Source: Patescibacteria group bacterium
Lineage (GTDB): Bacteria > Patescibacteriota > Patescibacteriia > Magasanikbacterales > UBA922
Assembly: GCA_028687045.1 (NCBI GenBank)
Contig: JAQUAW010000001.1
Location: forward strand, 2,034 to 66,033
Direction: 5' to 3'
Length of the DNA stretch: 64,000 nt
The position numbers and the translations under genes are program-made. The stretch's first letter is position 1; each line of letters opens with the position of its first letter. Below the pieces are notes generated by a model. That model made no database searches, was not told the origin of the DNA, and saw nothing but the letters and a program-made list of their open reading frames with translations. Shown piece after piece: positions 16,625 through 50,558 of the stretch.

Positions 16625-16628
16625 TTCC

Positions 16629-17048: not shown

Positions 17049-17056
17049 AAATAAAA

Positions 17057-18646: not shown

Positions 18647-18768
18647 GGCTAATTAAAGATAATTTTTTCAAAATAAGACTTTAGTTCTTAACTAAGTGTA
18701 TATAAAGCAGATACAGCAAGTACAACCTATATAACTATAATTAAAACCTAATACCTAAAACCTAATAA

Positions 18769-19230: not shown

Positions 19231-19336
19231 ATATTTTGTTACTTAAAATGAGTTAAAAAAATAGTACCGCATACGCGGACCTGTCAGCTACTAGTATAAC
19301 AGGTTTTGAATTAAGGTCAAATTTTCTTTCCACAAA

Positions 19337-21358: not shown

Positions 21359-21359
21359 G

Positions 21360-21863
21360 TTATTTTATTAATCTAAATTTTGTAAAAGTCTTTTCTAAAA
21401 TAAAATATAATAAAAAAGATAAACTAGTTGTAAGTAGTATTTCCCAACCATAATATACAAACAAAGTTGCTTTTATTTTTGTATTAGAAAATATAATCAA
21501 AATTGTATAAAAAATTCTAAAAATAACAACTTCTAATAATGTCATTGTGGCCAAAGCCCAAATAGATTTATTAGCAAAAAATTCATAATACAACCAATAT
21601 ACCAACAAAAAACTAATAGTCAAAGATATAGTGAAAACTCCAAAAGATAATTCACTATACAAATCCATCAAAATTCCTGCCAGAAAAGCCAACCAAACAA
21701 CACTCCCTGTACCATAAAAACTCAACATTATTATCAAAAAAATAATAACTAAATTGATGTTTTCAAAAGGATATGGTAATAAATAAGAAAAATACAAATT
21801 TAATACAAAAACAGTAACTATCAAAAAAATATAAAAAAGTGTCTTCAATACAGACTTAATCAT
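21360..21863 (-). CDS. mreD: Rod shape-determining protein MreD-like polytopic membrane protein
   Basis: Sits between mreC and mrdA; 167 aa and entirely hydrophobic. Confidence 0.5.
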   Translation of the reverse strand: MIKSVLKTLFYIFLIVTVFVLNLYFSYLLPYPFENINLVIIFLIIMLSFYGTGSVVWLAFLAGILMDLYSELSFGVFTISLTISFLLVYWLYYEFFANKSIWALATMTLLEVVIFRIFYTILIIFSNTKIKATLFVYYGWEILLTTSLSFLLYFILEKTFTKFRLIK

Positions 21864-29320: not shown

Positions 29321-29463
29321 ACTCCACAATTACATCCACCACAACAACTGTCTTCTTTTTCTGTTTCCTCGTCACAAGCGCAAAAACCTTCATTATTGCA
29401 ACAGGTATCTTCTTGCTTTGGCTCTTCTTGTGAATCTTTTTCTTCTTTTGTTTCGTCTGACAT
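29317..29463 (-). CDS. Candidate 48-aa micro-protein: acidic N-terminus and a C-terminus with 8 Cys (…TCCNNEGFCACDEETEKEDSCCGGCNCGV). Not in the ORF track because it is under 60 aa.
   Basis: The ATG lies 13 bp downstream of the stop of 29477..30676 on the same strand, and the frame is open for 147 nt. Confidence 0.35.
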   Translation of the reverse strand: MSDETKEEKDSQEEPKQEDTCCNNEGFCACDEETEKEDSCCGGCNCGV

Positions 29464-29476
29464 ATATTTATTTTAG

Positions 29477-30676: not shown

Positions 30677-30733
30677 AATATAAAAAATATAGTTGATTTA
30701 TGAAACTATAATATCATCTCTATAATACCCAAG

Positions 30734-33885: not shown

Positions 33886-35160
33886 CTAAACAAGATAACG
33901 TAAGAAAATATAGACAGTACACATCACCAAAGCTACAAAAGTCAAAGGTAATGCCATCTTCATATACTCCCAAAAACCAATACCATGACCTTCTTTACTA
34001 GCAATACCACTTACTACAACATTGGCTGAAGCACCAACCAAGGTCGCATTTCCACCAATATCAGCACCAAGAGCCAATGCCCACCAAATTGGTGCCAAAG
34101 GTAGTCCTGCAATAGTTCCTAAATCTTTGACAAGTGGGATCATAGTAGCTACAAATGGAATATTATCAATTACAGCTGAAAATATAGCTGAACCCCACAA
34201 AACACTCAAAGTAGTAGCTGTCATGTTTCCACCAGTAAGATTTAGCAAACCTTCAGCCAACATACGAATAGCGCCAACTTCTTCTAGAGCTACAACCAAG
34301 ATGAAAAGTCCCATGAAGAAAAATATTGTAGTCCATTCTACTTCTTTCAAATGTTCTTCTGGATCATGCATGGTCAAAAGCAACATAAGAGCAGCACCAC
34401 CAAGAGCGATAGTAGCACCTTCTAAATGAGTTACACTATGGGTAAAAAATCCAACCAAAACTATAGCCAAGACAAATAATGCTTTTTTTAACAATTTTAC
34501 GTCAGACAAAGCTTCTCTTGGATTAAATTTTGCGATAGTAGCTTGTGCTTCTGCAGTAGCCACAAGTTGCTTGCGATAAATGAAAACCAAAAGTGCAATA
34601 GTAACAATAGAAACAAGAACAGAAATAGGTCCAAGATTAACCAAAAAATCATTGAAAGTAAGACCACTAGCACTACCAATAAGAATGTTTGGCGGATCTC
34701 CGATAAGAGTAGCTGTACCACCAATATTGGCCAACAAAATAGCACCTATAAGAAATGGCTTAGGGTGAATTTTCAAATTATGAGCAACCACAAAAGTGAC
34801 TGGTATCATAAGAAGTACAGTAGTCACATTGTCGAGCAAAGCAGAAAAAACAGCAACAATAGTTAGTAATAATATATATATTTTTACAGGGTTACCCTTA
34901 CCAACTTTGGTAGCCCAGATAGCCACATATTGAAACATACCACTGTGTTTGGCTATTCCCACAATAATCATCATACCAATCAAAAGGCCTAGAGTATTGA
35001 AGTCAATCCCCTCAATTGCTTTTTCTTGTGTCACAATACCAAGCAAAACCATCAATCCCGCACCAGCCATAGCAATGACAGTACGATGAATTTTTTCAGA
35101 GATGATAATAGCGTAAGTAGTAATAAAGACAACAAGTGTAATCCAAAAAAAGATTCCCAT
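33886..35160 (-). CDS. ArsB/NhaD-superfamily ion transporter permease
   Basis: 424 aa, about 10-12 TM helices, with a duplicated internal-repeat architecture typical of the ArsB/NhaD/CitMHS group. Confidence 0.65.
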   Translation of the reverse strand: MGIFFWITLVVFITTYAIIISEKIHRTVIAMAGAGLMVLLGIVTQEKAIEGIDFNTLGLLIGMMIIVGIAKHSGMFQYVAIWATKVGKGNPVKIYILLLTIVAVFSALLDNVTTVLLMIPVTFVVAHNLKIHPKPFLIGAILLANIGGTATLIGDPPNILIGSASGLTFNDFLVNLGPISVLVSIVTIALLVFIYRKQLVATAEAQATIAKFNPREALSDVKLLKKALFVLAIVLVGFFTHSVTHLEGATIALGGAALMLLLTMHDPEEHLKEVEWTTIFFFMGLFILVVALEEVGAIRMLAEGLLNLTGGNMTATTLSVLWGSAIFSAVIDNIPFVATMIPLVKDLGTIAGLPLAPIWWALALGADIGGNATLVGASANVVVSGIASKEGHGIGFWEYMKMALPLTFVALVMCTVYIFLRYLV

Positions 35161-35187: not shown

Positions 35188-35658
35188 TTAATGAATTCCG
35201 AGTACACGAGCGATAGCTTTTTTGATATCAGTACGATTGATATAGCCAACCAATTTTTCTTCAGCATCGACTACTGGAATTTGACGAATCTTGAATTCAG
35301 AAAGCATAGTAGCAGCTTCCATCAAAGTATGACTTTCTTTGATAGTGTGAACCTCTTTGGTCATAAATTTGGTAATAGGTTCATCAGCAACTTCTTTGAT
35401 TCTAACACTAAATTCTTCAGCCGCCTCAAAAGAAGCTAAATGTTTGTCTTCTTCCAAATAATCTGGAACTACATATTGAATCAAATCCATACTAGACAAA
35501 ATCCCTTTTACATATTTTTCATCGTCAACGACAACCACTCCATTGGTACGACCGTCAACCATTTTTTGCAATGCTTCTCTAAAAGTAGCATTAATATTTA
35601 CTGTTGTCACAACATCTTGCATGTTGTTTTTGACAAGATATTTTTCTTGTTCTGTCAT
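35188..35658 (-). CDS. Tandem CBS-domain protein
   Basis: 156 aa with two CBS-like motifs (GVVVVDDEKYVKGILS; IPVVDAEEKLVGYINRTD). Sits directly upstream of the permease. Confidence 0.7.
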   Translation of the reverse strand: MTEQEKYLVKNNMQDVVTTVNINATFREALQKMVDGRTNGVVVVDDEKYVKGILSSMDLIQYVVPDYLEEDKHLASFEAAEEFSVRIKEVADEPITKFMTKEVHTIKESHTLMEAATMLSEFKIRQIPVVDAEEKLVGYINRTDIKKAIARVLGIH

Positions 35659-35840: not shown

Positions 35841-37436
35841 TTATAAATCGTTTCCTGTATATGACATATTGAAACTTTTATTAATCAAAGGAAAATCTGG
35901 CACAATATTGTTCAAACCAGCCTCACCCAAAGCTGACCAGTTGACAAAGGAAGGATCTCTTGGAAATACTCTACTAATATTGCCTTGTGCGTCTGTAGCT
36001 ACGAAATAAGATATCTCTCCACGCCAACCTTCCACCATACTTACAGCATAAGCACTTTTTTGCAAAATAAGGCTAGTAATATTGGCTACAATAATCTCTC
36101 CCTCAGGTATTTTTTGCAAAGATTCTTGTACTATTTCCAATGATTTACGAATTTCTTTTAAACGAATCTGAAATCTAGCGTTGACATCACCCTCTTCTTC
36201 TACAGGTATTTGCCCCATAGAAACTTCGGCGTAAGCAGCATAAGGGTGATCAACACGTGTATCATGTTTTACACCTACAGCTCTACCAGCGACACCCAGA
36301 GTACCTTGGTTATTAGCTACTTCTAGAGAAATGATGCCTGTACCTTTTAGACGATTCAAAAGTGATGCACTATCTTCAGCGATAGCAATCACTTCTTCAA
36401 AATCTTTAGCAATTTTTATCAGTTCTTTACTTAGATAATCTTGTTCACTTTTGTTTAAATCTTTTTTTACACCACCAATAGTATTTACACTACGCAAAAA
36501 TCTACTTTTTGTTAATTTTTCATTTATTTGCATCATCATTTCACGCAAACGTGATCCATTGGCTCCACCAAAACTGAAACCAGTATCCATCATAATAGCT
36601 CCAATATCACCAAAATGATTAGCTAGTCTTTCAAGTTCAGCAAAAATGGTTCTCAAATACAAAGCACGTTTTGGCACTTCAATTCCAGCTAATTTTTCTA
36701 TAGTTTGACAAAAAGCTAAAGAATGACTAAAAGAACTATCACCAGAAATTTTTTCTGACAAACGTATCTTATTTTCCAAAGACAAAACTTCAAATAATTT
36801 TTCACTACCTTTGTGTACATATCCCAAACGTGGTTCAAGTTGCACAATACTTTCTCCAGCCATACTAAAACGAAAATGACCAGGTTCGATAATACCAGCA
36901 TGAATTGGTCCAACAGGAATTTCATAAATCCCCTCACCTTTTACTTCTTGAAATTCATATTTACCGGTTACTTCTTTCAATTTGGTTTTCCATTCAAAAT
37001 CTTTTCTAAGAGGAAAAACATTACTTGGATAATTTTCATGCAAAATAAGCGGTCTATTGTCTGGAATATCTGTAGCTACTAAACCAAAAAAAGTCTGAAT
37101 TCTTCTTTCGTAGTTTAATATTTCAGGTACAAGGTTAGCCAATGAAGGAAAATCAGTAGTATTTTTCAATTCAATAAAAGGACAGATAAAAAAATTATCA
37201 CCAGGTACAGCAAATAAATACCAAATTTTGAAAGCTCCTTTTTCTTTTCTTTCGTCTGTAGCGGTGACTAGCTTAAGTGAAAGTTTTTTTTGATTATGTA
37301 ACTCTCCTACAATTTCAGCTATTTGTGTAGAAGATACTTCGAAGATAGCCAAGTTATCGTGATACTCTACGTTAGCATTCTTTGGAAGGTATGATTGTAT
37401 TTTTTCTTTTATCATATTAGTATTGCAAAACAGCAT
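35841..37436 (-). CDS. Fused NuoC-like/NuoD-like subunit, homologous to the group-4 [NiFe]-hydrogenase large subunit but lacking the Ni-binding cysteines (Ehr large subunit-like)
   Basis: VGPIHAGIIEPGHFRF and LGYVHKGSEK are NuoD/HycE-like. The L1 position reads KISGDSSFSH where hydrogenases have RxCGxCxxxH. The C-terminus has no CxxC. Confidence 0.7.
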   Translation of the reverse strand: MLFCNTNMIKEKIQSYLPKNANVEYHDNLAIFEVSSTQIAEIVGELHNQKKLSLKLVTATDERKEKGAFKIWYLFAVPGDNFFICPFIELKNTTDFPSLANLVPEILNYERRIQTFFGLVATDIPDNRPLILHENYPSNVFPLRKDFEWKTKLKEVTGKYEFQEVKGEGIYEIPVGPIHAGIIEPGHFRFSMAGESIVQLEPRLGYVHKGSEKLFEVLSLENKIRLSEKISGDSSFSHSLAFCQTIEKLAGIEVPKRALYLRTIFAELERLANHFGDIGAIMMDTGFSFGGANGSRLREMMMQINEKLTKSRFLRSVNTIGGVKKDLNKSEQDYLSKELIKIAKDFEEVIAIAEDSASLLNRLKGTGIISLEVANNQGTLGVAGRAVGVKHDTRVDHPYAAYAEVSMGQIPVEEEGDVNARFQIRLKEIRKSLEIVQESLQKIPEGEIIVANITSLILQKSAYAVSMVEGWRGEISYFVATDAQGNISRVFPRDPSFVNWSALGEAGLNNIVPDFPLINKSFNMSYTGNDL

Positions 37437-38862
37437 TATTAATTAAAGTCTGCAAAAATGGTGGCAAATAGACACTCAAAATAACTATAATAGTAACAAA
37501 TAAAATTTGTGGAATAAACAACCAAATATTATTTTCACCTTTTTCAATATTGTCTGGTTTTTCTCCAAAAAACATAGCTGTAAAATGTTTCAAAAAACTT
37601 ACAAAAACTAAAGCGAGAAAAAACAGAGCAATCAAACTAACGACAGGATACTCTTTCATACCAGCTGACAAAATGTAAAGTTTGGTCATAAACATTCCAA
37701 ATGGTGGCACACCTGTCACAATCAGAAAACCAATAAGGGAAAGTACACCCGTCACAGGCAAGACTTTCAAAGCTCCTTTGACATTGAAAATTTTGGCAGA
37801 ACTATATTTCAATAACAAATTTCCTGTAGATAAAAAGAGTACGACTCTGACACAAGAATGATAAACAATATGAAGTATTGCTGCAAAAATACCTAATCCT
37901 CCAAAACCAAAACCAAGTGCCATTACACCGGCATTTTCAATACTAGAATAAGCAAGCAATCTTTTGTAATTTTTGGCATTGAACATAATCAAAGCTGAGA
38001 CAACAATAGACAATAGACCAAAAACAATCAATAGTGTTTGACTAAACAAAGGTCCAACGGCAATGTCTACAATAACCTTGTATCTAAGCATAATCACAAA
38101 AGCAATTGGCAACAAAGCGCCGGATAACAAAGCGCCTATAGGTGCTGGTGCTTTGCTATAAGCATCTGGTTTCCAAGTGTGCATTGGTACAAAACCAATC
38201 TTAGTACCATAACCAATAAGTACAAAAACAAAAGCAATTTTAGCAAGCAAGGGGTCAAGATGAATAGCATTACTAGTCAATGTTTGCCAGTCCACCAAAC
38301 CAACACTAGACAAATCAATAGAGGTAAAAAATAATAATGTTCCAAAAAATCCCAAAAGTAAACCAACAGAATTGATAATCAAATATTTCCAAGCTCCTTC
38401 AATCGCTGATGGTTTATTGTAAAAACTTATCAAAAAGGCAGTAGACAGTGTGGTAGCTTCAATAGAAATCCAAGCAAAAATAGGATTGCTAGAGGTAATT
38501 GCCAAAAACATCGCTACAAAAAACATATTCAACAAAACAAAATATTGTTTTACACGTGTAAAACCAATAATACTTTTTTGCATTTCTTGACGTAAATATT
38601 GTACAGAATAAATAGTAGTAGCAAAACCAACAAAACCAAGAACCAAGACAATAATAGCACCCAAAGAATCAATTGAAAAAAATCTTCCAGAACCTGGTGT
38701 ATAAATTCCCAATGAAGACACTTTTAGAGCTACTACAATAGACAACACCAAAGAAATTAATGAAGAAACTACTGATACAACTTCAATAACTACTTTTCTT
38801 TTAGAAAGAAGATTTATTATCGCTGCAATAAACAAAGTTATTATTATAAAAAAAATTTCCAT
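37417..38862 (-). CDS. NuoN/NuoM/MrpD-like antiporter-type membrane subunit
   Basis: 481 aa, about 14 TM helices, with family-typical motifs. Confidence 0.7.
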   Translation of the reverse strand: MEIFFIIITLFIAAIINLLSKRKVVIEVVSVVSSLISLVLSIVVALKVSSLGIYTPGSGRFFSIDSLGAIIVLVLGFVGFATTIYSVQYLRQEMQKSIIGFTRVKQYFVLLNMFFVAMFLAITSSNPIFAWISIEATTLSTAFLISFYNKPSAIEGAWKYLIINSVGLLLGFFGTLLFFTSIDLSSVGLVDWQTLTSNAIHLDPLLAKIAFVFVLIGYGTKIGFVPMHTWKPDAYSKAPAPIGALLSGALLPIAFVIMLRYKVIVDIAVGPLFSQTLLIVFGLLSIVVSALIMFNAKNYKRLLAYSSIENAGVMALGFGFGGLGIFAAILHIVYHSCVRVVLFLSTGNLLLKYSSAKIFNVKGALKVLPVTGVLSLIGFLIVTGVPPFGMFMTKLYILSAGMKEYPVVSLIALFFLALVFVSFLKHFTAMFFGEKPDNIEKGENNIWLFIPQILFVTIIVILSVYLPPFLQTLINNAVLQY

Positions 38863-38866
38863 ATTT

Positions 38867-39514
38867 TTAATCTTTTAATTTTTTCATTGAAGAAACATTC
38901 AATGTTCCAAAATGTTTATACAACATTGAAATAAAAATTGAGGCAATCATAATCCAAATAAAAATATTAAAAATAATTCCTAATTGAAGAGAAGCCGACT
39001 GCTCTAACTCAGCAAAAACAGCAAACATCACGATACTATTTTCAAAAGACAAAATACCAATAATTTGTGACAAAGCCCCTTTACGATTGACTATCAAAAA
39101 CAAAGAAAGAAACATCGATGACAAAGCAAGAGATAACAGCATTTGATGATCTGACACAATACTAGTCAAAGGAACAAACTTTTGTGAATGAGCTATAAAA
39201 ATTAAAACAGCAATAACAATTAAAGTAATTGGTGTATTTAGATAAGTACTAACAGAAAAAGACAAAGCATATTTTTTGATCAGACTAATAAAAAACTTTG
39301 GTGCTACAATAACTTTGACAATCAACATCACAAGTATAACTAATAACATCCACAAATCTTTGGTCTCAAAAAAAGAATTTAATAATATAATAACAACTAC
39401 TAATGATTGCAAGGCATAAGTATACACAGCTGAAACGTTTTTCTTCATTATAAGCAAAAAGACAACAGATAATAGAACTATCTCAGATAAAAATTGTAAA
39501 GTTAATAGATTCAT
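38867..39514 (-). CDS. Small polytopic membrane subunit of the same module, possibly NuoJ/K- or MbhD/HyfE-like
   Basis: 215 aa and hydrophobic. Embedded between the NuoH-like and NuoN-like genes. Confidence 0.4.
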   Translation of the reverse strand: MNLLTLQFLSEIVLLSVVFLLIMKKNVSAVYTYALQSLVVVIILLNSFFETKDLWMLLVILVMLIVKVIVAPKFFISLIKKYALSFSVSTYLNTPITLIVIAVLIFIAHSQKFVPLTSIVSDHQMLLSLALSSMFLSLFLIVNRKGALSQIIGILSFENSIVMFAVFAELEQSASLQLGIIFNIFIWIMIASIFISMLYKHFGTLNVSSMKKLKD

Positions 39515-39547
39515 AAATTATCACTATAAAAAACAAAGTTAGATGTT

Positions 39548-40483
39548 TTATTTAATTGAATAAATAAGTCCAATTGCCACAACATTGAAAATAAAAGAAA
39601 TAAATAATAAATCTGGCAATCGAAAAAATCTAAATTTAGCAATAGTTGATTCTAGCACAGCAATAGCACCACAAAATAAAAATATTTTTATTAAAAAATA
39701 AAAAATACTCAAAGATATCGAAGCCAACCCAACATCAGTACCAAAACCAAATGGAAAAAATAAGTTAGCGCCAAGTACCATAAAAATAAGTAATTTGTTG
39801 GCAGCAGCCCATTCCATCAGTGCCAAACGTTTACCAGAAAATTCCAAAATCATAGCTTCATGCACCATAGTCAATTCCAAATGAGTAGCTGGATTATCAA
39901 AAGGAAATCTGGCAGTCTCAGCCAATAAAACAATGAAAAATCCACCAAAAGCAAGTAATACTGGCAAAAAGTATTGACCACCAATTGATTGACTAAAACT
40001 TGCGATATCAAACAAATTACTAGAACCAGCTATCAAAGCCATGGTTAAAAGTGAAAAAATGAAGCCTCCTTCAGCTAAAGCTGAAATAGTCATTTCACGA
40101 CTTGAACCAAAACCACCAAAAGCACTACCTGTATCAACACCAGCCAAAGCCATAAAAAAAGTACCAATAGCTAAAGTATAAACAACAAATAAAATATCAC
40201 TAGTAACAAAACCTGCAATGCGTGGAAAAAAGATAGGTATACTAAAGCCAACTACCAAAGTTACTGCAAAAACAATATAAGGAGTAAATCGAAAAACCCA
40301 AGAAGCGTCATTACTTATTACTTCATCTTTGTGTAAAAGTTTCCAGATATCTCTGTAAGGTTGAAAAATATTAGCACCTTGACGATTTTGTAACTTAGCT
40401 TTTATTTTTCTAATAATACCAATACACAAAGGTGACAAAGCTGGTACAAAAAATAATTGGATTATCCAAATAAATATTGACAT
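39548..40483 (-). CDS. NuoH/HycD/EchB-like membrane subunit
   Basis: 311 aa; the RIAGFVTSD…GFGSSREMTISALAEGG region matches the NuoH/HyfC fold pattern. Confidence 0.7.
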   Translation of the reverse strand: MSIFIWIIQLFFVPALSPLCIGIIRKIKAKLQNRQGANIFQPYRDIWKLLHKDEVISNDASWVFRFTPYIVFAVTLVVGFSIPIFFPRIAGFVTSDILFVVYTLAIGTFFMALAGVDTGSAFGGFGSSREMTISALAEGGFIFSLLTMALIAGSSNLFDIASFSQSIGGQYFLPVLLAFGGFFIVLLAETARFPFDNPATHLELTMVHEAMILEFSGKRLALMEWAAANKLLIFMVLGANLFFPFGFGTDVGLASISLSIFYFLIKIFLFCGAIAVLESTIAKFRFFRLPDLLFISFIFNVVAIGLIYSIK

Positions 40484-40487
40484 AAAA

Positions 40488-42539
40488 TTATAATATTACG
40501 AGTAGAGCTAGCATAAGAGCTACAAAAATATAAGTGATATAAAGATCGATATTACCATTCTGTATAGTCTTAGCTTTTACAGATAACTTATTGATTACTA
40601 TATGTATAGGTTGATAAAAGTAAGTATTGTATATATTACTAATACTCAAAGTTATTGTTCTTGATTTTGGTAAATATCTATTTTGATCATCATAATACTC
40701 AATATTATTTTGAATAGTTGGTTTGAGCAAACCTTTGAAAATCAATATTATTGATCGTGAGAATCCTGTAGCTGTTATTTCAGCACGTGGAGTAAGATCT
40801 GTACCACAATCCCAAGTATTGGTCTTACATTCTTTTTGTGTTTTGTTAATTACTTTTTTGAAAACGAAAATTACCAAAAAAGTAGCAACCACAAGTAAAA
40901 GAAAAATAAACATACCAGAGATTGAAGAAAATCCATCAGAAACAGTCATACTCTGGTTAGAAGAAATATTTACAGCAGAAGCTGAATTTTTGAAGATACT
41001 CAAACTTTGACTTACGGTATTGATAAGACTAATTACATATCCAGAAAATACACCAAACAAAAGTGTTAATAATGCTAAAGCGCCCATACCTAAACGCATA
41101 GAAAAAGGAGATTCTTTGGCATGTTTCACTTCCTCACTACGTGGACGAGCCAAAAAAGTAGCAGCAAAAGCTTTGACAAAACAAGCAAGTGCTAATCCCC
41201 CAGTAAATACCAATGATCCTGCTGCCAAAATAAAGATCCATTGTGTTACAAACTGCATTTGATTTATTCCTTGAAACAAAGCTTGATAAGTCAACCATTC
41301 ACTAAAAAAACCATTAAACGGTGGCAAAGCAGAAATAGCAATTGAACCAATAAGAAAGAAGAAAGCTGTTTGTGGCATGTACTTTATTAGACCACCATAT
41401 TCTTCCATATTACGAGTATGTACTTGGCTTATTACCGAGCCTGCACTTAAGAAGAGTAAAGCCTTGAAAATAGCATGATTAAGTGTGTGAAATAATGCTG
41501 CACCAAGGCCAAGCAAAGCCAAAGCTGGTAAATTTAGAGAATAAAAAGTCAAAGCACTGCCCAAACCAAGCAAAATAATACCAATGTTTTCTATACTATG
41601 ATAAGCAAGCAATCTCTTGATATCATGTTCAGTCAAAGCATATAAAACTCCGAGTAGAGATGAGATTGAACCAACCACCAAGATTACTAATCCCCACCAG
41701 TATGGTGCTGGAGAAAGAATATCCAAAAACAATCTTACCATCATATAGATACCAGTCTTGATCATAACACCTGAGAGTATTGCTGAAACATAAGAAGGAG
41801 CAGCTGGATGAGCGGCTGGTAACCAAATATGCAATGGGATAATACCAGCTTTCAAGCCAAAACCAATAAAAGCAGAAACAAAAATAATATTTTTTATAAA
41901 TGCAGGAACAAGAGCTATATTTTCTTTTATCACTAGAAAATCAAAAGAACCAATATACTTAAACAAAAGTAAAAAAGCTAAAATAATAAAGGCTGTACCA
42001 ATATAAGTCATCACCAAATACAAAAAACCTGCCTTTACATTATCTTGATCATTTTTTTCATAAACAATCAAGAAATATGAAGTAACTGCCATTATTTCCC
42101 AAAAAATAAGGAAAAAAAGAGCATTAGAAGAAGTTACTACTAAAATAACACTGGCAATAAAAATGTTATAGAAAAATCCAAGAGCGCCAATATTATATTT
42201 TTTGTAATAATGTTTTATATAACCTACACCATAGATAGAACAGAATAAGACTATCAAAGAAACTACAAAAACAAAAAAACTAGACAACAAGTCGATATGA
42301 AAAGACAATGTAAAAAGTGAAAAAACAGATGTTTTCAGATCAAACAACAAACTACTTTTTGTCAAAATTGCTGTAATAGAAAAAATCAAACCCCATAAAG
42401 AACCAGCGATAGCAAAAAAACTACCCCAGCCATTTGCATATTTATCATTTTTGAGGAAAAACAAAGATCCAATGCCTCCAACAAAAAATAAGGAAAGTAA
42501 AATAAAAAAGCTAATTGGTGAGGTAATGATTTCTAACAT
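40488..42539 (-). CDS. NuoL/MrpA/HyfB-like large antiporter subunit
   Basis: 683 aa, about 16-18 TM helices, with the conserved WLPAAHPAAPSYVSAI-type motif. Confidence 0.75.
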   Translation of the reverse strand: MLEIITSPISFFILLSLFFVGGIGSLFFLKNDKYANGWGSFFAIAGSLWGLIFSITAILTKSSLLFDLKTSVFSLFTLSFHIDLLSSFFVFVVSLIVLFCSIYGVGYIKHYYKKYNIGALGFFYNIFIASVILVVTSSNALFFLIFWEIMAVTSYFLIVYEKNDQDNVKAGFLYLVMTYIGTAFIILAFLLLFKYIGSFDFLVIKENIALVPAFIKNIIFVSAFIGFGLKAGIIPLHIWLPAAHPAAPSYVSAILSGVMIKTGIYMMVRLFLDILSPAPYWWGLVILVVGSISSLLGVLYALTEHDIKRLLAYHSIENIGIILLGLGSALTFYSLNLPALALLGLGAALFHTLNHAIFKALLFLSAGSVISQVHTRNMEEYGGLIKYMPQTAFFFLIGSIAISALPPFNGFFSEWLTYQALFQGINQMQFVTQWIFILAAGSLVFTGGLALACFVKAFAATFLARPRSEEVKHAKESPFSMRLGMGALALLTLLFGVFSGYVISLINTVSQSLSIFKNSASAVNISSNQSMTVSDGFSSISGMFIFLLLVVATFLVIFVFKKVINKTQKECKTNTWDCGTDLTPRAEITATGFSRSIILIFKGLLKPTIQNNIEYYDDQNRYLPKSRTITLSISNIYNTYFYQPIHIVINKLSVKAKTIQNGNIDLYITYIFVALMLALLVIL

Positions 42540-42540
42540 A

Positions 42541-43083
42541 TTATTTTTTTTGTGAAGGTTTATTTTCTATTGTTTCAAGAATCTTGAGTAATGATTGAAG
42601 AATAAAAGTAGGTGTAGGAGGATCACCCAGAATTTGATAATCTACAGGTATCACTGAATCTACACCATTTAACACAGCATAAGAATCTTTGAATATTCCA
42701 CCATCAATAGCATCATCCCCTATTGCTACCACAATTTTTGGGTTAGGTGTGCCATCATAGGCATCTTTGAGAGCCTTGGCCATATTTTTCGCTACAGGAC
42801 CAGTCACAAGCAACATGTCAGCGTGTCTTGGTGAAGCCACAAAATGAATACCAAAACGTTCAACATCATAGAAACTGTTAGACAAAGCTACCAATTCTTG
42901 TTCACAAGAGTTGTCTGATCCAGCATCAATTTGTCTGATAGCCAAAGAACCCCTAAATAATTTTTTTACTTTATCTTGTATTTTTTCTCCAATTTCAAAA
43001 AAATCCTTTTGATTAAGATCATCTTTTGAAATAGAAATTATATTTTTTGGTGTTTTGAATATTTTTACAAAAAGTTTCAACAT
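42541..43083 (-). CDS. NuoB/hydrogenase small-subunit homolog with 3 of the 4 Fe-S ligand cysteines replaced
   Basis: Aligns to NuoB: GCCAVEMM becomes NSCEQELV, MGSCANGGG becomes IGDDAIDGG, and PGCPP becomes LGDPP. Confidence 0.7.
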   Translation of the reverse strand: MLKLFVKIFKTPKNIISISKDDLNQKDFFEIGEKIQDKVKKLFRGSLAIRQIDAGSDNSCEQELVALSNSFYDVERFGIHFVASPRHADMLLVTGPVAKNMAKALKDAYDGTPNPKIVVAIGDDAIDGGIFKDSYAVLNGVDSVIPVDYQILGDPPTPTFILQSLLKILETIENKPSQKK

Positions 43084-43267
43084 ATAGACCTTAAAATAAT
43101 ATTTTATTATACTTTACAAAAAATCACTAAAATATAAATATACCTATGATTGGCAAATTTATAACAGGACATATTTTCTCACTAAATAAACTAATTGTCA
43201 ACCCAATAAATTTATATTATACACATGAAAAAATCAAAAAACCACTTTTGAAAAGTGGTTTTACCTT

Positions 43268-43696
43268 TTATCTTAATTTTCTGTATTTGTTGGCAACCCT
43301 GATTCTGTTCATTTCTTTATCAATAAGTGCTTGCAGTCTAGCATAATCAACATCTTCAATATTTTTGACTTTTTCCATTTCTTCTTCAGCTCTCTTATGA
43401 GCTTCTTCAGCTCTAGCAAGATCAATATTATCAGCTCTTTCAGCACTATCAGCCAAGATGACTAATTCACTATTTGCTCTCACTTCCAAAAAACCACCAG
43501 AGATAGCATAAGGATGTTCACCATCTTTATCTTTGATTCTCATTTCTCCAGCTTGAAGAACAGAAACCATAGGAATATGGCTTGGCAATACGGTAATTTC
43601 ACCAGAAGTTGTTGGAATACTTACTTGAAAAACATCATTTTCGTAAACTTTTTTTTCTGGTGTGATTATTGTAAATTTTAAAGTTTGTGTTGACAT
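43268..43696 (-). CDS. atpC: F1 ATP synthase epsilon subunit
   Basis: 142 aa with a beta sandwich and a helical hairpin. Last gene of the atp operon. Confidence 0.8.
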   Translation of the reverse strand: MSTQTLKFTIITPEKKVYENDVFQVSIPTTSGEITVLPSHIPMVSVLQAGEMRIKDKDGEHPYAISGGFLEVRANSELVILADSAERADNIDLARAEEAHKRAEEEMEKVKNIEDVDYARLQALIDKEMNRIRVANKYRKLR

Positions 43697-43706
43697 AGAT
43701 ACAAAT

Positions 43707-43778
43707 TTTATCTCAATATATCTCTATTTTATCTCTATCTTATTATAAGGAGATAAATGGAGATAATGTAGAGATATG
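43707..43778. repeat. GAGATAA/TTATCTC motif cluster between atpD and atpC
   Basis: TTTATCTCAATATATCTCTATTTTATCTCTATCTTATTATAAGGAGATAAATGGAGATAATGTAGAGATATGG. Confidence 0.55.
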
Positions 43779-43785
43779 GTTTTAT

Positions 43786-45174
<1,389 letters not shown>

Positions 45175-45204
45175 TTAATTAATTGATTTGTTTTAAAATA
45201 TTTA

Positions 45205-46170
45205 TTAATTTAACGCTGCAGCACCACCAGCAATTTCCGCAATTTCTTGAGTAATAGCAGCTTGTCTAGTCTTGTTATAAGTAAGATTCAATTCTTTGAT
45301 CATATCATTTGCTGAGTCACCGGCATTTTTCATAGCCAACATGCGAGCACTGTGTTCACTAGCAGAACTTTCAAGTAGAGATTGATATATTTGCATTTCT
45401 ACAAGTCTAGGTAAAATTGTTTTCAAAACTTCAGCTTTACCTGGTTCAAATAAATATTCGTTCAATTGTTCTTGCTTTCCTTTATTCAAAGTTCTTTCTT
45501 TCAAATCTTCATCACGACCAAGCTCAGTAATCATTTTTTCCAAATCAAATTCTGAAATTGGTAACACTTGACGAATCTTAGCTTCTTGAGCCACAGCTGA
45601 ACGATAATCTGTATAAGATACTACAACTTTATCATATTTTTTTTCTATATAATTTCCAATTATCATTTGAGAAGCTACCATTACATCTTCAAGTACTGGT
45701 TTATCTGAAATACTATTGAAAGAAGCAATCAAGTTGTAACCGTGTTTTTTACAAAAATCAGCACCTTTTTTACCAATACCAATCACATCTACTTCCACAC
45801 TTTCACTAGACTGGGTATGTTTATTACGAGCACGTTGAAAACTAATATTTTTTGGATCTTTTAGTTGAGCTGCAGTTTTTTTGATAATATTGGAATTGAA
45901 ACTTCCACACAAACCACGATTGGAAGTAATCAAAATTAATAATATTCTTTTTACTTGTCTTATCTCAAGCAAAGGCATTGATTCCTTTTCAGTCTTTGAC
46001 AAATTTATCAACAAATCCCACGCAGTAGTAGCGTATTCTCTAGTATCCAAAGCAGCCTGCACAGCTTTGCGCATTTTGGCAGCCGAAACCATTTCCATCG
46101 CCTTAGTAATTTTTTTGGTGTTGGAAACTGATTTGATTCTAGTTTTTATTGCTTTAGCACTTACAGCCAT
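45205..46170 (-). CDS. atpG: F1 ATP synthase gamma subunit
   Basis: 321 aa with conserved termini (MAVSAKAIKTRIKSVSNTKKITKAMEMVSAAKMRKA …AITQEIAEIAGGAAAL). Confidence 0.85.
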   Translation of the reverse strand: MAVSAKAIKTRIKSVSNTKKITKAMEMVSAAKMRKAVQAALDTREYATTAWDLLINLSKTEKESMPLLEIRQVKRILLILITSNRGLCGSFNSNIIKKTAAQLKDPKNISFQRARNKHTQSSESVEVDVIGIGKKGADFCKKHGYNLIASFNSISDKPVLEDVMVASQMIIGNYIEKKYDKVVVSYTDYRSAVAQEAKIRQVLPISEFDLEKMITELGRDEDLKERTLNKGKQEQLNEYLFEPGKAEVLKTILPRLVEMQIYQSLLESSASEHSARMLAMKNAGDSANDMIKELNLTYNKTRQAAITQEIAEIAGGAAALN

Positions 46171-46241
46171 ATTATTAAATAAAAAGTTTAAAGTTTAAAG
46201 TATCTGTGTTAATCCGCGTTGTTATCTAATTATTCTGCGTA

Positions 46242-47729
46242 TTATTTCTTAAATTCTTCACAAACACCTTTCAAATCCGCAATGATACTATCATCCCATT
46301 CACCTTTAGAGATTTTTTCTAACAATGATTGGTGACTACCTCTAACAAAATCCAAAAATTTTTCTTCTGTTTTCAAAATATCAGTAACAACAACATCATC
46401 GAAATAACCATTATCTACTGCAAAAATAGAAGCAACTTGATCTTCAACATGCATCGGACTATATTGAGGTTGTTTCATAAGTTCTACTACTCTAGCACCT
46501 CTATCCAATTGTTTCTTTGTTTCGACATCTAGATCACTAGCAAATTGAGCAAAAGCTTCAAGTTCACGATATTGAGCAAGAGCAAGCTTAATTTTACCAG
46601 AAACTTTTTTCATTGGTTTAGTTTGAGCAGCACCACCTACACGAGAAACAGAGATACCGACGTTGACAGCTGGACGAATACCCTTGAAAAACAAATCTGT
46701 TTCCAAGAAAATTTGTCCATCAGTAATAGAAATTACGTTGGTTGGAATATAAGCAGTCACGTCAGAAGCTTGTGTTTCAATAATAGGAAGAGCGGTAATA
46801 GATCCACCACCATGTTCTTTGTTCAAGTTACAAGCACGTTCCAAAAGACGGGAATGAAGATAAAAAACATCTCCAGGATAAGCCTCACGTCCTGGTGGGC
46901 GTCTCAAAAGCAAAGAAATTTCACGATAAGCCCAAGCTTGTTTTGTCAAATCATCATAAACGATTAAGACATCTTCACCTTTATCAGCGAAGTATTCAGC
47001 CATAGTTACACCAGCATACGGAGCAATAAAAGACATCGCAGCAGGATCAGATGCACCAGCTACCACTACAGTTGTGTATTCCATAGCACCATTTTCTTCA
47101 AGTTTAGCTACGATACGAGCTACTTTTGACTCTTTTTGTCCAATAGCTACATAAATACATTTCATGTTTTGACCTTTTTGGTTGATGATAGCATCAATTG
47201 CAATAGCTGTTTTACCAGTTTGACGATCACCAATGATAAGCTCACGTTGTCCACGTCCAATTGGAATCATAGCGTCAATAGCTTTGATACCAGTCTGTAC
47301 AGGAACACCAACAGGTTGACGACTCATCACACCAGGAGCTGTTTTTTCGATAGGATAAAATTCTTTTGTAACAATATCACCTTTACCATCAATAGCTTGT
47401 CCAAGAGCGTTTACCACACGACCAATCACTTTTTCACCAACTGGTACTGACAAAATTCTACCAGTTCTCTTGACAGTATCACCTTCTTTGATTTTTTCAT
47501 ATTCACCCAAAATCATAGCACCTACAGTTTCTTCTTCCAAATTCAAAGCTACACCCATAATACCGCCTGGGAATTCAAGCATCTCTTGAGATTGACAACT
47601 TGTCAGACCACTCATACGAGCAATACCGTCCCCTACTTCAATAACAGTACCGACTTCTTCTACTTCTACTGTTTTTTGAAAAGCAGAAATATGTTTTTTT
47701 AGTTCTTCGATTACTTGATTTGTAGACAT
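46242..47729 (-). CDS. atpA: F1 ATP synthase alpha subunit
   Basis: [11 protein letters not shown] Walker A; 495 aa. Confidence 0.95.
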
Positions 47730-47744
47730 ATATTTTTTACTAAT

Positions 47745-47775
47745 CTTGAGCGGAGCGAAAGATCTGTAGACCCTG
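47745..47775 (+). repeat. Y-type repeat upstream of the atpA start
   Basis: CTTGAGCGGAGCGAAAGATCTGTAGACCCTG. Confidence 0.6.
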
Positions 47776-47804
47776 CGAACGCTTCTTTTAATTTAAATGT
47801 TTTT

Positions 47805-48191
47805 TTAAATAGTTAAACTTTTTTTTAAATTTGTCAATTGTGTTTTCACACTAGCATCCAATATTTTATCTTCTATTTTCACTCTAATACCACCTATCAA
47901 ATTTTTATCAATCTTTTCTTGAACAAAAACTTCTTTACCAAAAGATTCTTTAATTTTTTTGATAATTTCACTATCCAAATCTCTTGCAGAAGTTACTTCC
48001 AATTCAACTATTCCTTGTTTCTTCTTAAGAATAGTTTCAAATTCAGCTATAATATTATTGGTTTGTTTTATTTTGTGTTTTTTAGCTAGTAGACCCACAA
48101 AATTTTTCAAAACAATATCTAAATCACTAGCATTCAAACCAATAGTCAATTCGTAAAGAGCTTCAGCAAATTGTTTATTAGAAATTTTCAT
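47805..48191 (-). CDS. atpH: F1 ATP synthase delta (OSCP) subunit, short form
   Basis: C-terminal IGGIRVKIEDKILDASV is typical of delta. It sits between atpF and atpA. Confidence 0.65.
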   Translation of the reverse strand: MKISNKQFAEALYELTIGLNASDLDIVLKNFVGLLAKKHKIKQTNNIIAEFETILKKKQGIVELEVTSARDLDSEIIKKIKESFGKEVFVQEKIDKNLIGGIRVKIEDKILDASVKTQLTNLKKSLTI

Positions 48192-48200
48192 ATATTTACG

Positions 48201-48243
48201 TCATTCCGACCCGCCGAATCGGCGGGGAGGGATATTTCTTAAA
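48201..48243 (+). repeat. X-type repeat upstream of the atpH start
   Basis: TCATTCCGACCCGCCGAATCGGCGGGGAGGGATATTTCTTAAA, with the perfect inner stem CCCGCCGA/TCGGCGGG. Confidence 0.65.
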
Positions 48244-48308
48244 TCTAAATTATTTTAATTTACAAAACTTTCAAATGATTCTAAAATACTTTTTCAATTA
48301 ATTTATTA

Positions 48309-48869
48309 TTATTTTTTTAGACTAGCTAAACTATCTTCAATTATTTTTTTGTCAATTTTACCATCCATTTTTTCATTCAAGATTTTTTCTAAAGCAGTTA
48401 CAATAAGTGTAGCTGATTCCTGTCTAATCTCTTCCATCATTTGTACTTTTTCTGTTTGAATACTTTTTTTAGCTTGATCCACAATCACTTCGACTTCACT
48501 TTTAGCTTTTACTTTCATATCCTCACCAAGTTGTTTAGCTTCAGTATGTGCTTTTTCAATTACTTTATTAGCTTCAGCTTTGGCTTCTTTCAATTTGTCT
48601 TGATATTCTTTTTCACTAAGAGCTAAATTAGTTTCAATTTCTTTAGCATTATCAATACTATCATCAATCATTTTTTTACGTTCAGCCAATGTTTTAGTCA
48701 AAGGTTTCAAAATCAAAAACCATAAGATTATAGCAACAACAGTAAAGTTAATAAGTTGAAAAACAAAAAGTTGAGCATTTAAACCCAAAGATGCTGGTAA
48801 ACTTTGTTCAGCAACGCCTGTTTCCTCATGTGTATTTAATGTTTCTTCTGTCATAATAATATTAAACAA
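48309..48869 (-). CDS. atpF: Fo ATP synthase b subunit
   Basis: Single N-terminal TM followed by a long charged helix. Confidence 0.7.
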   Translation of the reverse strand: MFNIIMTEETLNTHEETGVAEQSLPASLGLNAQLFVFQLINFTVVAIILWFLILKPLTKTLAERKKMIDDSIDNAKEIETNLALSEKEYQDKLKEAKAEANKVIEKAHTEAKQLGEDMKVKAKSEVEVIVDQAKKSIQTEKVQMMEEIRQESATLIVTALEKILNEKMDGKIDKKIIEDSLASLKK

Positions 48870-48979
48870 GTAAATAATTATTTGTGTTTATTTGTGTAAC
48901 ATTTGTATTATTTTCAAACAAATAAACCAATGAAACCAAGTTTACCAGTTTTTAGCTAGTAAACTTAGTCTACAACGAT

Positions 48980-49267
<288 letters not shown>

Positions 49268-49338
49268 TTATAAATTAAGTGACCTTTCGATCTTAGTCCC
49301 CTTGAAAATTTCAAGAAGATTGAAGATTGAAATGTCTT

Positions 49339-50157
49339 TTAGTGATGTGCTTCTTCTTCATCTCCATGTGGAACAGAAGTGGCTACCGTCATATATACCA
49401 AAGTAAGCATCGCAAATACCGTAGCTTGAATCACACCTACCAATATCTCAAGTAACATGAAAGGTGTTGGAACAAAAGCCGCAACTAAAGCCGAAATCAC
49501 AGAAATCAAGATTTCTCCAGCAAAAATATTACCAAAAAGACGTAGAGAAAGAGATACAACTTTTGCAACCTCAGAAACTATTTCGATAAGACCCACACCA
49601 AATTCAATGATAGCTGCAAAAACAGCAATGAACCCTTCGCCAATACCATTTTTGAATTTTTTAAAACTTTTGAAAACATTTTTTATTTGTACAAACTTAC
49701 CCAAATGTGTAAAAACACCAATAGTAGCAAAAGCATAGAGATGCGAACCAATCACAGAAACAAGTGCCATAGCGAGAGTAAGATTCAAATCAGTGTTGGC
49801 AGGACGAAGCAACATATTGTGTCCAACAGTAATACTTCCTGTACCTGGTAAAAGTCCAAGCCAATTTGATAACAAAATAAAAAAGAAGATAGCACCAACT
49901 ATTGGCAAAAATCTAATAGTCTTTTTTCTATCTCCTGTAACTTGATCAAAATAACCAAGTAGCGTGTCTAAGAAAAATTCACTAGCATTTTGTAATTTTC
50001 CTGGTTTCAAACTTATACTTCTTTTTATAAAAATTCCTAAAATCAAAAAAATGACAATCGCAAGCCAAGCATTTACCATAGTATTGGTAATATTTAGATT
50101 ACCAATGTGAAATACTGCTTCTGGAGCAAGTGTAGGAATGTGAATTTCTGCGCTCAT
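49339..50157 (-). CDS. atpB: Fo ATP synthase a subunit
   Basis: 272 aa with a conserved Arg in the LSLRLFGNIFAGE motif. Confidence 0.85.
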   Translation of the reverse strand: MSAEIHIPTLAPEAVFHIGNLNITNTMVNAWLAIVIFLILGIFIKRSISLKPGKLQNASEFFLDTLLGYFDQVTGDRKKTIRFLPIVGAIFFFILLSNWLGLLPGTGSITVGHNMLLRPANTDLNLTLAMALVSVIGSHLYAFATIGVFTHLGKFVQIKNVFKSFKKFKNGIGEGFIAVFAAIIEFGVGLIEIVSEVAKVVSLSLRLFGNIFAGEILISVISALVAAFVPTPFMLLEILVGVIQATVFAMLTLVYMTVATSVPHGDEEEAHH

Positions 50158-50192
50158 AATTTATTTATTTTGATTTCCATAATTAATGGTGT

Positions 50193-50278
50193 TCTCCCCC
50201 TTGTAGGGGGAGCTAGAGGGGGTTAATGACAATTTAATCAACGTCGAACCCCACCTGACCTCCCCTACAAGGGGAGGA
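50193..50278. repeat. GC-rich composite hairpin element between atpZ and atpB
   Basis: CTCCCCCttgtaGGGGGAG and its inverted twin CCTCCCCtacaaGGGGAGG flank a third hairpin, AGGGGGTT…AACCCCAC. Confidence 0.55.
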
Positions 50279-50297
50279 ACTCTCTAAAAAGTTTTAT

Positions 50298-50558
50298 TTA
50301 TTTTTTTTCGTCAAGTTTCTTATACTCTTCCCCATACAACTTAGCTTTCTTATAAATCATTTTAGTAGAAAGAAAGGCAGCCAAGAGAAAAGCTGAGATA
50401 GTAAACCAAGGAGCGTGTCCATATTTACCTTCAAGCCACTGACCAATTAAGACAAAAACTATAATAGGTACAGCAATTATGGCTCCAAAATCACCCACAA
50501 TACGTAGACCCAACATCATATATTTTCTATCTTTTGGATCTTCTGGTAAAAGAGACAT
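50298..50558 (-). CDS. AtpZ/AtpI-like small membrane protein encoded upstream of atpB
   Basis: 86 aa with two TM helices, in the leader position of the atp operon. Confidence 0.5.
   Translation of the reverse strand: MSLLPEDPKDRKYMMLGLRIVGDFGAIIAVPIIVFVLIGQWLEGKYGHAPWFTISAFLLAAFLSTKMIYKKAKLYGEEYKKLDEKK

Follow-up and report, generated by a model that had tools for sequence, protein, structure and literature searches.

Complexes of the Ehr type (for energy-converting hydrogenase-related) were reportedly defined by Marreiros et al. in 2013, and examples have been discussed for Nitrospira, Sulfobacillus and Margulisbacteria/Saganbacteria. The candidate phyla radiation (CPR), or Patescibacteria, holds a large share of bacterial diversity; its members are without electron transport chains, yet nearly every one has retained an F1Fo ATP synthase. 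It has yet to be settled by what the membrane gradient of these cells is built or used, a question posed in, among others, the Vampirococcus paper (PMC8080830). A monophyletic CPR clade of Ehr complexes without the NiFe cysteines was described by Jaffe et al. 2020 (PMC7304191). A six-subunit Nqo-like or hydrogenase-like complex without Ni sites was described in CPR Kaiserbacteria, and an NADH-driven electron-transfer role was proposed for it, by Danczak et al. 2017 (PMC5581439). Here, a six-gene module at 35841-43083 of a 64,000-nucleotide stretch from a Patescibacteria group bacterium (assembly GCA_028687045.1, contig JAQUAW010000001.1; the whole stretch is called the window) was compared with these systems. 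The module is assigned to an Ehr subclade without iron-sulfur ligands, and it lies beside the ATP synthase genes, an arrangement that recurs in its relatives. A sequence-only reading of the window had called Ehr rarely studied; in view of the CPR Ehr of PMC7304191 and PMC5581439 this was overstated.

Six intact open reading frames (ORFs) were confirmed from the ORF listing at these coordinates on the minus strand, tightly packed in the order S-A-B-C-D-L and directly downstream of atpC (43268-43696). The first, ehrS (42541..43083), encodes a NuoB/HycG-like small subunit of 180 amino acids (aa; Pfam Oxidored_q6, E=7e-24) that aligned to HycG and MbhJ. It is followed by ehrA (40488..42539), whose HyfB/NuoL/MrpA-like antiporter-like product of 683 aa carries Proton_antipo_M, aligned to HycC and MbhH, and matched the NCBIfam hydrogenase-4 subunit B profile over approximately its full length (649 bits, cutoff 667). 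The NuoH/HycD-like subunit encoded by ehrB (39548..40483; 311 aa; Pfam NADHdh, E=8e-46) aligned to HycD. A HyfE-like small membrane subunit of 215 aa with a NuoK-type region is encoded by ehrC (38867..39514), which was matched over its full length, below cutoff, by NCBIfam PRK11492 (E=3.5e-15); the orthologue in locus L163 gave a weak PF00420 match. The remaining genes are ehrD (37417..38862), for a HyfF/NuoN/MrpD-like antiporter-like subunit of 481 aa (Proton_antipo_M in Pfam, HyfF-like in NCBIfam), and ehrL (35841..37436), for a NuoC-NuoD fusion resembling the HycE large subunit (Pfam Complex1_30kDa and Complex1_49kDa). The order given by the sequence-only reading (NuoB-like, NuoL/MrpA-like, NuoH-like, small membrane subunit, NuoN/MrpD-like, NuoC-NuoD fusion) was thereby upheld by ORFs, Pfam and NCBIfam. 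The true start of ehrL is probably M8 at 37415, giving 524 aa, because homologues are 523-524 aa long and align from M8. With this start the ehrD-ehrL junction reads TAA-t-ATG, a 1-nucleotide spacer; the 20-base-pair (bp) overlap reported earlier for this last junction stands with the first ATG and falls away with the M8 start of the homologues.

The F1Fo ATP synthase operon atpZ-B-E-F-H-A-G-D-C occupies 43268..50558, also on the minus strand and co-directional with the ehr genes, as previously read (50558..43268). Within it, atpZ was identified by Pfam, subunit c by a PDB match and atpB from its translation; atpA, atpG, atpD and atpC were assigned via the Pfam labels of L161, a 93%-identical relative of the window, and for atpF and atpH the evidence is from weaker tblastn matches in other loci linked to atp. 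In subunit c the ion site (AFAEAIAIY) is of H+ type, without the Q...E-S/T sodium motif. The gap between atpC and ehrS is 184 bp (43084-43267), one less than the 185 bp first given. Pfam scans of nearly all window ORFs of at least 100 aa returned housekeeping genes only and found no NuoE, NuoF, NuoG or NuoI and no hyp gene in the 64 kilobases (kb), in agreement with the earlier statement that an input module and hydrogenase maturation genes are missing from the window. The block is flanked by atpC on one side and by a CBS protein and a transporter on the other. Membership of a larger nuo or hyc locus was ruled out, there being no further nuo, hyc or hyp genes within 64 kb.

Homology of the large subunit to the group-4 [NiFe]-hydrogenase large subunit and NuoD was established from Pfam, HycE and MbhL matches. 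Against solved structures the subunits matched HycE (5e-67), HycG (2e-28), HycC (2e-82) and HycD (2e-38), with MbhL at E=5e-42 for the large subunit. In the alignment of EhrL to E. coli HycE (7z0s_E), all four NiFe cysteines are replaced: the L1 cysteines by S231 and S234, within KISGDSSFSH as originally noted, and the L2 cysteines by S525 and G528. Both L1 RxCGxCxxxH and L2 DPCxxCxxH/R are absent, and the same substitutions occur across approximately 150 related loci. In EhrS, aligned to HycG and MbhJ, the cysteines of the N2/proximal [4Fe-4S] cluster correspond to D57, C60, D124 and D154, so that three of the four are replaced, as had been claimed; the one retained, C60, is the sole cysteine of the protein. 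The quinone-site residues H38 and Y87 of T. thermophilus Nqo4 correspond to I183 and G232 of EhrL. No NAD-, FAD- or FMN-binding, ferredoxin, flavodoxin or cytochrome domain was found in the six proteins (Pfam, NCBIfam) or in the operon flanks, and no ORF with CxxCxxCxxxC was found anywhere in the 64-kb window. The criteria for a group-4 [NiFe] hydrogenase point the same way, since the NiFe ligands, a 2x[4Fe-4S] NuoI/HycF-like subunit and the proximal cluster are all absent from the operon. The module therefore carries no recognizable ligands for any known electron-transfer cofactor, and the description "redox-dead" survives these structure-based alignments.

Two ways around this result were considered and rejected. 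A sequencing or frame problem hiding the cysteines was ruled out by the intact ORFs, by the presence of the substitutions in dozens of independent assemblies and by low ratios of nonsynonymous to synonymous substitution rates (dN/dS); the check for frame errors set out in the sequence-only reading thus ended with the ligands truly absent. A substitute metal site built from D57, D124 and D154 was ruled out by the variety of residues (T, S, G, E, N, A, V) that stand at these positions within the subclade.

A pattern scan in which each GTDB species was represented by a single genome returned more than 590 related loci, including examples from Nitrospira, Thaumarchaeota, Rokubacteria, Acidobacteria, Verrucomicrobia and Firmicutes. 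A large-subunit signature, [R/K/S]-x-S-G-D-x-x-x-x-H plus N-x-S-Y-x-G-x-D, was common to nearly all related loci (approximately 150), and the six-gene set of small, two antiporter-like, NuoH-like, HyfE-like and large subunits recurred in more than 160. The Nitrospira loci L012-L017 have the same signature and gene set as the window; Nitrospira Ehr are described in PMC10284858. The window module is accordingly assigned to the Ehr family because its signature and gene set match what the literature calls Ehr, and the original family assignment holds, the S-G-D...H and N-x-S-Y-x-G-x-D residues being shared with Ehr of Nitrospira type.

The N2-ligand positions of EhrS were tabulated over 160 loci, 80 from genomes and 80 from metagenomes. 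The ligands are kept in 83 canonical loci (CCCC in 82, PCCC in one) and lost in approximately 58, where the four positions read DCDD (23), TCDD (11), DCDN (6), SEGD (5) and also DCGD, TADD, TEDD, TEGD and others. The loss of the NuoB/N2 cysteines had been taken for an Ehr signature, a view contradicted by the 83 canonical loci that keep them. About 25 canonical loci add a 2x[4Fe-4S] ferredoxin-like module, either as an ORF of approximately 110 aa between ehrL and ehrS or fused to the EhrS N-terminus; a search of the iron-sulfur-less operons for this module, as a CxxCxxCxxxC ORF, found none. Judged from these motifs, the family comprises three-cluster, one-cluster and zero-cluster versions, with the window among the zero-cluster ones, and Ehr is not one uniform family. 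The idea that the whole family is non-redox was weakened by the 2x[4Fe-4S] modules.

A neighbor-joining tree was made from five concatenated subunits with 50 bootstraps. The main iron-sulfur-less group was monophyletic in 50/50 bootstraps, and the window is placed by these data in a derived monophyletic iron-sulfur-less subclade of approximately 58 loci. The loss may have happened once or twice, because the deep-branching iron-sulfur-less loci L058 and L069 join the main group in just 24/50. The subclade is mainly CPR/Patescibacteria, with a few metagenome-assembled genomes (MAGs) labelled Firestonebacteria, Endomicrobiales, Fibrobacteria, Thermoleophilia and Bdellovibrionales. The window itself is taken to come from a tiny, groundwater-type CPR bacterium of Magasanikbacteria type. 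For the large subunit, the closest homologue (93% identity) was from a Candidatus Magasanikbacteria MAG (Patescibacteria/Parcubacteria group), and homologues of 60-66% identity bore many CPR labels (Paceibacterota, Peregrinibacteria, Gracilibacteria) and some labels of Firestonebacteria and "Deltaproteobacteria". In the tree, the loci with labels of Firestonebacteria, Endomicrobiales and Thermoleophilia are nested within metagenome loci that carry CPR labels or none. This departure of the Ehr tree from taxonomy indicates lateral transfer of the Ehr cassette, as was also inferred by Jaffe et al. 2020 (PMC7304191).

Tandem pairs of Ehr or Ehr-like operons were seen on single contigs in L120, L107, L005, L053, L059 and L021; in L120 an iron-sulfur-less S-A-B-C-D-L operon sits between the ehrL of a canonical operon and an ehrS fused to a ferredoxin. 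In the iron-sulfur-less locus L001, from a non-CPR Firestonebacteria MAG, a gene for the beta subunit of acetyl-CoA synthase/carbon monoxide dehydrogenase of the Wood-Ljungdahl pathway (11631-13817) adjoins ehrL, with a 2x[4Fe-4S] protein beside it.

The module might still be a redox enzyme, supplied with electrons by a partner encoded elsewhere or by a soluble donor such as NADH, or holding in its pocket a cofactor without cysteine ligands. In favor of this, the canonical Ehr, with one to three Fe-S clusters, are probably redox enzymes, and the large-subunit pocket is conserved between both clades. The domain searches described above argue against this, as do the single cysteine and variable ligand positions of EhrS and the replacement of the quinone-site His and Tyr by I183 and G232. 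Quinone biosynthesis is, moreover, generally lacking in CPR bacteria. NADH was suggested as donor for the CPR six-subunit complex (PMC5581439); none of the domains or motifs found here lends support to such a role. Overall, a surviving redox function was considered very unlikely.

Conservation was compared between the iron-sulfur-less and the cluster-bearing Ehr. Charged residues of EhrA (E148, K230, K261, H351, H355, K359, E414) and of EhrD (E135, K221, H331, H335, K339) were conserved at 90% or more in both clades, and the window copy of EhrD also retains H228. Acidic residues of EhrB were likewise conserved in both (E130, E138, E189, D196, E203, E209, E214, E224, E278), and conserved residues of EhrC were K67, R144 and E158, so that the charged-residue chains of the membrane arm (EhrA, EhrD, EhrB, EhrC) are conserved alike with and without clusters. 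The antiporter-type Glu of transmembrane helix (TM) 5, Lys of TM7, Lys of TM8 and Lys/Glu of TM12 are present as E148, K230, K261 and E414 in EhrA, and as E135 and K221 in EhrD. In EhrL the pocket residues E184, H187, S231, H238, K520, S525, Y526 and D530 were as conserved in the iron-sulfur-less as in the cluster-bearing loci. Almost no positions were conserved solely in the cluster-bearing clade.

Against two close relatives, dN/dS was 0.02-0.16 for all six genes and lowest for ehrS (0.017-0.093), which points to strong purifying selection, and identity was 60-75% across different candidate phyla. By every criterion of this kind that was applied, the module appears still functional. These data bear on whether it could be a decaying, functionless relic of an ancestral hydrogenase or complex I. 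All cofactor ligands are indeed lost, and in L161 (GCA_041674805.1, 4878-6928) EhrA is split into ORFs of 415 and 263 aa by a 1-nucleotide deletion; the window copy is intact. That deletion may be an assembly error, since it falls in a T7 homopolymer, or a real frameshift. Because the functional residues are invariant and dN/dS is low, and with all six ORFs intact in the window, the relic was effectively refuted and retains next to no probability.

Linkage to ATP synthase genes was counted over 46 non-redundant iron-sulfur-less loci with enough upstream sequence, L161 standing in for the lineage of the window, and over 83 canonical loci, in which atp genes were sought within approximately 10 kb. 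In 12 of the 46 (L003, L010, L058, L081, L089, L094, L106, L109, L125, L130, L161 and L163) atpC is followed by ehrS in the same direction, and in two more the genes are adjacent in other ways: between atpD and atpC in L007, and with atp divergent from ehr in L128. Among the 83 canonical loci none had an atp gene within approximately 10 kb (Fisher p=1.5e-6, without correction for phylogeny). In the Ehr tree the linked loci are spread over eight or more separate positions, one of them that of the deep-branching L058. When flanking ORFs were clustered, the only neighbor families that reached more than five loci were atpA/D, atpC and atpG; Pfam, applied to 146 flanking ORFs other than atp, gave no other conserved partner family in more than three loci, and clustering gave atp genes only. 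The synteny of atp and ehr is therefore real, recurrent and specific to the iron-sulfur-less subclade. The tie to the ATP synthase operon proposed by the sequence-only reading gains by this, and the survey of related genomes that it called for did find homologues adjoining atp genes (12 co-directional and two nearby).

The spacers between atpC and ehrS differ in length. They measure 2 bp in L106, 9 bp in L094 and 35 bp in L089, then 119-132 bp in L109, L125 and L081, 184 bp in the window and L161, and 257 bp in L058; in each of L163, L010 and L130 one gene is inserted. In L007, a Daviesbacteria MAG, atpD and atpC of an otherwise colinear atpF-A-G-D...C are separated (2986-21556) by the Ehr operon, with approximately 5 kb of further genes, on the opposite strand. 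The visible c subunits of atp-linked loci are all of H+-type, without the Q...E-S/T sodium motif. A Na+-coupled ATP synthase or a coupling-ion switch was ruled out on this ground.

In the window, a terminator-like hairpin was found directly after the atpC stop (43238..43262, minus strand; AAAACCACTTTTCAAAAGTGGTTTT followed by a T-run), kept in L161 and L081, with a fold energy of -10.5 to -11.5 kcal/mol (z=-2.7). A promoter-like site upstream of ehrS (43173..43201, minus strand) reads TTGACA-17-GAAAAT and is TG-extended; it is a consensus match only. Its TTGACA and TG-GAGAAT/GAAAAT elements are kept in L081 and L161, although the rest of the spacer has diverged. Nothing in the spacer reached any Rfam threshold for a riboswitch or known RNA element. 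Because the hairpin and the conserved promoter-like site lie between atpC and ehrS, co-transcription of atp and ehr in the window is probably partial or absent, and the module probably has its own promoter. Co-transcription with atp had been raised as a possibility for this locus, and it is made doubtful here by elements kept in the two closest relatives. Where the spacers are just 2-35 bp, co-transcription is very likely for that reason.

The adjacency could also be without functional meaning, a mobile Ehr cassette having landed repeatedly downstream of a conserved operon. The 32 of 46 loci not linked to atp would fit such an origin, as would the hairpin and promoter-like site of the window, the departure of the Ehr tree from taxonomy together with the lateral transfer inferred in PMC7304191, and a mosaic of nucleotide identity between the window and L161. 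It is opposed by the standing of atp genes as sole recurrent neighbors, by a place and orientation that are constant (after atpC, co-directional) in 12 loci at eight or more tree positions including L058, by spacers of 2-35 bp that amount to operon fusion in three lineages, by the 0/83 among canonical loci and by the cassette between atpD and atpC in L007. We regard purely incidental adjacency as quite unlikely. Between the window (35841-47729) and L161, synonymous divergence (dS) rises at the atpC/ehrS boundary from 0.02-0.16 in the atp genes to 0.20-0.34 in the ehr genes, and nucleotide identity varies from 87 to 100% in 500-bp windows; the dS step could reflect recombination or codon constraint on atp.

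The strongest rival explanation supposes a primary, non-redox, chemistry-driven ion pump, in which a reaction at the large-subunit pocket or in a partner would build the gradient used by the ATP synthase. By analogy, a candidate reaction would be interconversion of CO2 and bicarbonate by a carbonic-anhydrase-like partner. Its rank follows from the peripheral arm and pocket, which are as conserved as the membrane arm; the pocket residues and the whole peripheral arm are as conserved as in cluster-bearing Ehr, and dN/dS is lowest for EhrS. In the unbiased scan of the 146 non-atp flanking ORFs, Pro_CA_2 (putative carbonic anhydrase) recurred more than any other family: four such proteins were found in the three loci L163, L058 and L109, all atp-linked, and those of L163 lie one between atpC and ehrS and the other after ehrL. 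A weak match to CDCA (zeta-carbonic-anhydrase) lies between atpC and ehrS in L007, and malic enzyme, ornithine/arginine decarboxylase and phosphoenolpyruvate carboxylase occur near some loci. However, carbonic-anhydrase-like neighbors are confined to three to four of the 46 loci and absent from the window, no further family members came from an iterative hidden Markov model search, two of the Pro_CA_2 scores are at or just below cutoff, and the CDCA match is below it. None of the Ehr pockets has been assigned a known reaction, and the chemistry there was arguably electron-dependent at the outset, because the same pocket is kept in Ehr with Fe-S clusters. A chemistry-driven pump was on balance considered unlikely. 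The Pro_CA_2 matches lie at 3836-4285 and 11795-12340 in L163, 11822-12763 in L058 and 14313-15227 in L109 (30-57 bits, cutoff 30), those in L058 and L109 being in a tandem two-domain form; the CDCA match of L007 is at 3445-4161.

The explanation favored here, tentatively and at slightly less than an even chance, is that the module would be a redox-independent, gradient-driven cation or proton translocator working with the H+-type F1Fo ATPase. Redox independence is proposed because no route for electrons is apparent, and the gradient-driven form is preferred because it alone needs no unseen partner. The module would then act as an Mrp-like secondary antiporter or as a converter between delta-pH and membrane potential, with its NuoH-like channel capped or gated by the conserved peripheral arm. 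In a fermenting cell without a respiratory chain, the ATPase would spend ATP to build a proton gradient, which the Ehr module might use or reshape for Na+ or K+ extrusion, for pH homeostasis or for a second coupling ion for symporters. The Mrp-like mechanism is an inference by analogy: Mrp antiporters are built from the same antiporter-like subunits, and Na+/H+ antiport without redox turnover has been reported for deactive mitochondrial complex I and for E. coli complex I.

Several observations weigh against a gradient-driven translocator tied to the ATPase. Neither ion specificity nor transport direction can be read from sequence, and MrpB, MrpE, MrpF and MrpG, which are thought to form the Na+ path, are absent from the module. 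Conservation is as strong in the peripheral arm as in the membrane arm and strongest of all in the subunit EhrS, and the large-subunit pocket is invariant; all this exceeds the apparent need of a passive cap and hints at chemistry or gating in the pocket. As for the partnership with the ATPase, 32/46 iron-sulfur-less loci are not adjacent to atp, the terminator-like hairpin separates atp from ehr in the window, and part of the synteny pattern could reflect insertion preference, since the Ehr tree departs from taxonomy in a way that indicates horizontal transfer.

A cofactor-free complex-I-like module beside atp is a concrete, experimentally tractable candidate for part of the answer to how CPR membranes are energized. 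The coupling and ion-translocation apparatus appears to have been kept under strong selection after removal of the redox chain, so the system allows ion translocation to be examined separately from electron transfer, with bearing on the mechanism of complex I. A bolder proposal, which we hold to be doubtful, is that the ATP synthase of CPR would have in iron-sulfur-less Ehr its missing bioenergetic partner: a stripped complex-I derivative acting as an ion-gradient converter or a non-redox pump (for example of the CO2/bicarbonate kind), whose recurrent fusion to the atp operon would stem from an obligate and possibly physical coupling. If true, this would explain how bacteria without a respiratory chain energize or regulate their membranes, and would provide a natural "redox-knockout" of the coupling machinery of complex I.

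In the literature search, no paper combining Patescibacteria, Ehr and hydrogenase was found. No description was found of small-subunit cluster loss as a clade trait, of three-, one- and zero-cluster Ehr or of atp linkage, the founding 2013 paper, which may note some of these, lying outside the search. The feature is unmentioned in Beam 2020 and in a 2025 complex I survey, and "ATP synthase" has no occurrence in the accessible part of PMC7304191. Beyond the literature found, two points appear to be new: that N2 loss is not a general Ehr trait, and that atp linkage is confined to the iron-sulfur-less subclade.

Other features of the window were recorded. Immediately after ehrL there is a strong promoter-like site (TTGAAA-17-TATAAT, 35752-35724), next after which comes a gene for a CBS-pair protein of 156 aa (35188-35658) and, 27 bp past it, one for a transporter of CitMHS/ArsB/Na-sulfate-symporter type (33886-35160). 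L161 has the pair after ehrL as well, L081 ends with a short CBS-gene match behind ehrL, and more distant loci are without the pair. Because CBS pairs are usually sensors of adenosine nucleotides, the two genes may form an energy-sensing transporter unit. A 399-aa gene of AAA/ATPase_2 type (29477-30676, within approximately 29400-30700) is missing from the otherwise colinear L161, a strain-specific insertion or deletion. At 12603-16465, three tandem NUDIX hydrolase genes (12603-13082, 13146-13493 and 13495-13977) lie near a Ham1-NUDIX fusion (15404-16465), an unusual density of nucleotide-sanitizing enzymes for a small genome.

Comparison with known systems was made subunit by subunit. The best structural and profile matches of every subunit were to E. 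coli hydrogenase-4 and formate hydrogenlyase (Hyf, Hyc; 7Z0S), which have the same NuoC-NuoD-type fusion. The window module differs from Hyf and Hyc in being without the NiFe site, the proximal cluster and the HycF/HyfH and HycB/HyfA ferredoxin subunits, and no formate dehydrogenase or hyp maturation genes are found in the 64-kb window. EhrA keeps the TM7 lysine (K230), whereas HycC is without it. With respiratory complex I the module shares homologues of NuoB, NuoC, NuoD, NuoH, NuoL/M/N and NuoK, as well as the conserved charged residues that form a chain in the membrane arm. Unlike complex I, the module is without NuoE, NuoF, NuoG, NuoI, NuoA, NuoJ and a third antiporter-like subunit; its N2 ligands are absent, and H38 and Y87 are replaced by I183 and G232.

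Mrp antiporters resemble the module in having two antiporter-like subunits of the MrpA/MrpD family, a NuoK/MrpC-like element and no redox cofactors. They have MrpB, MrpE, MrpF and MrpG and are without NuoH-, NuoB- and NuoD-like subunits; because the composition of Ehr is the opposite, the module is not a member of the Mrp family. The cyanobacterial NDH-1 CupA/B complexes and DabAB, relevant to a chemistry-driven pump only, pair one or more antiporter-like subunits with a carbonic-anhydrase-like protein, and Pro_CA_2 proteins adjoin the operon in three atp-linked Ehr loci. Pro_CA_2 is, however, a different family from CupA and DabA, no carbonic-anhydrase-like gene is present in the window, and the association extends to 3-4/46 loci.

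The closest likeness is to the CPR Ehr clade of PMC7304191 and the Kaiserbacteria complex of PMC5581439, which are, like the clade of the window, monophyletic, CPR-dominated, without NiFe cysteines, patchy in distribution and marked by signs of lateral transfer. The clade of the window module is almost certainly the same as that of Jaffe et al. 2020 and Danczak et al. 2017. The present account differs in that neither loss of the small-subunit Fe-S ligands nor linkage to the ATP synthase is described in the accessible parts of those two articles. Canonical Ehr share with the window the six subunits, the large-subunit signature in place of the NiFe motifs and the membrane-arm residues, and differ from it in keeping the N2 cysteines of EhrS (82 CCCC, one PCCC) and, in approximately 25 loci, in carrying the 2x[4Fe-4S] module. 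Small universal-stress-like proteins (6 loci) and sigma-54-dependent NtrC-type response regulators (13 loci; for example L046, 12227-13624) often lie beside canonical Ehr. The canonical gene order is mostly A-B-C-D-L-S and the recurrent neighbors are these sigma-54 NtrC-type regulators and never atp, whereas the clade of the window is ordered S-A-B-C-D-L and is linked to the ATP synthase genes.

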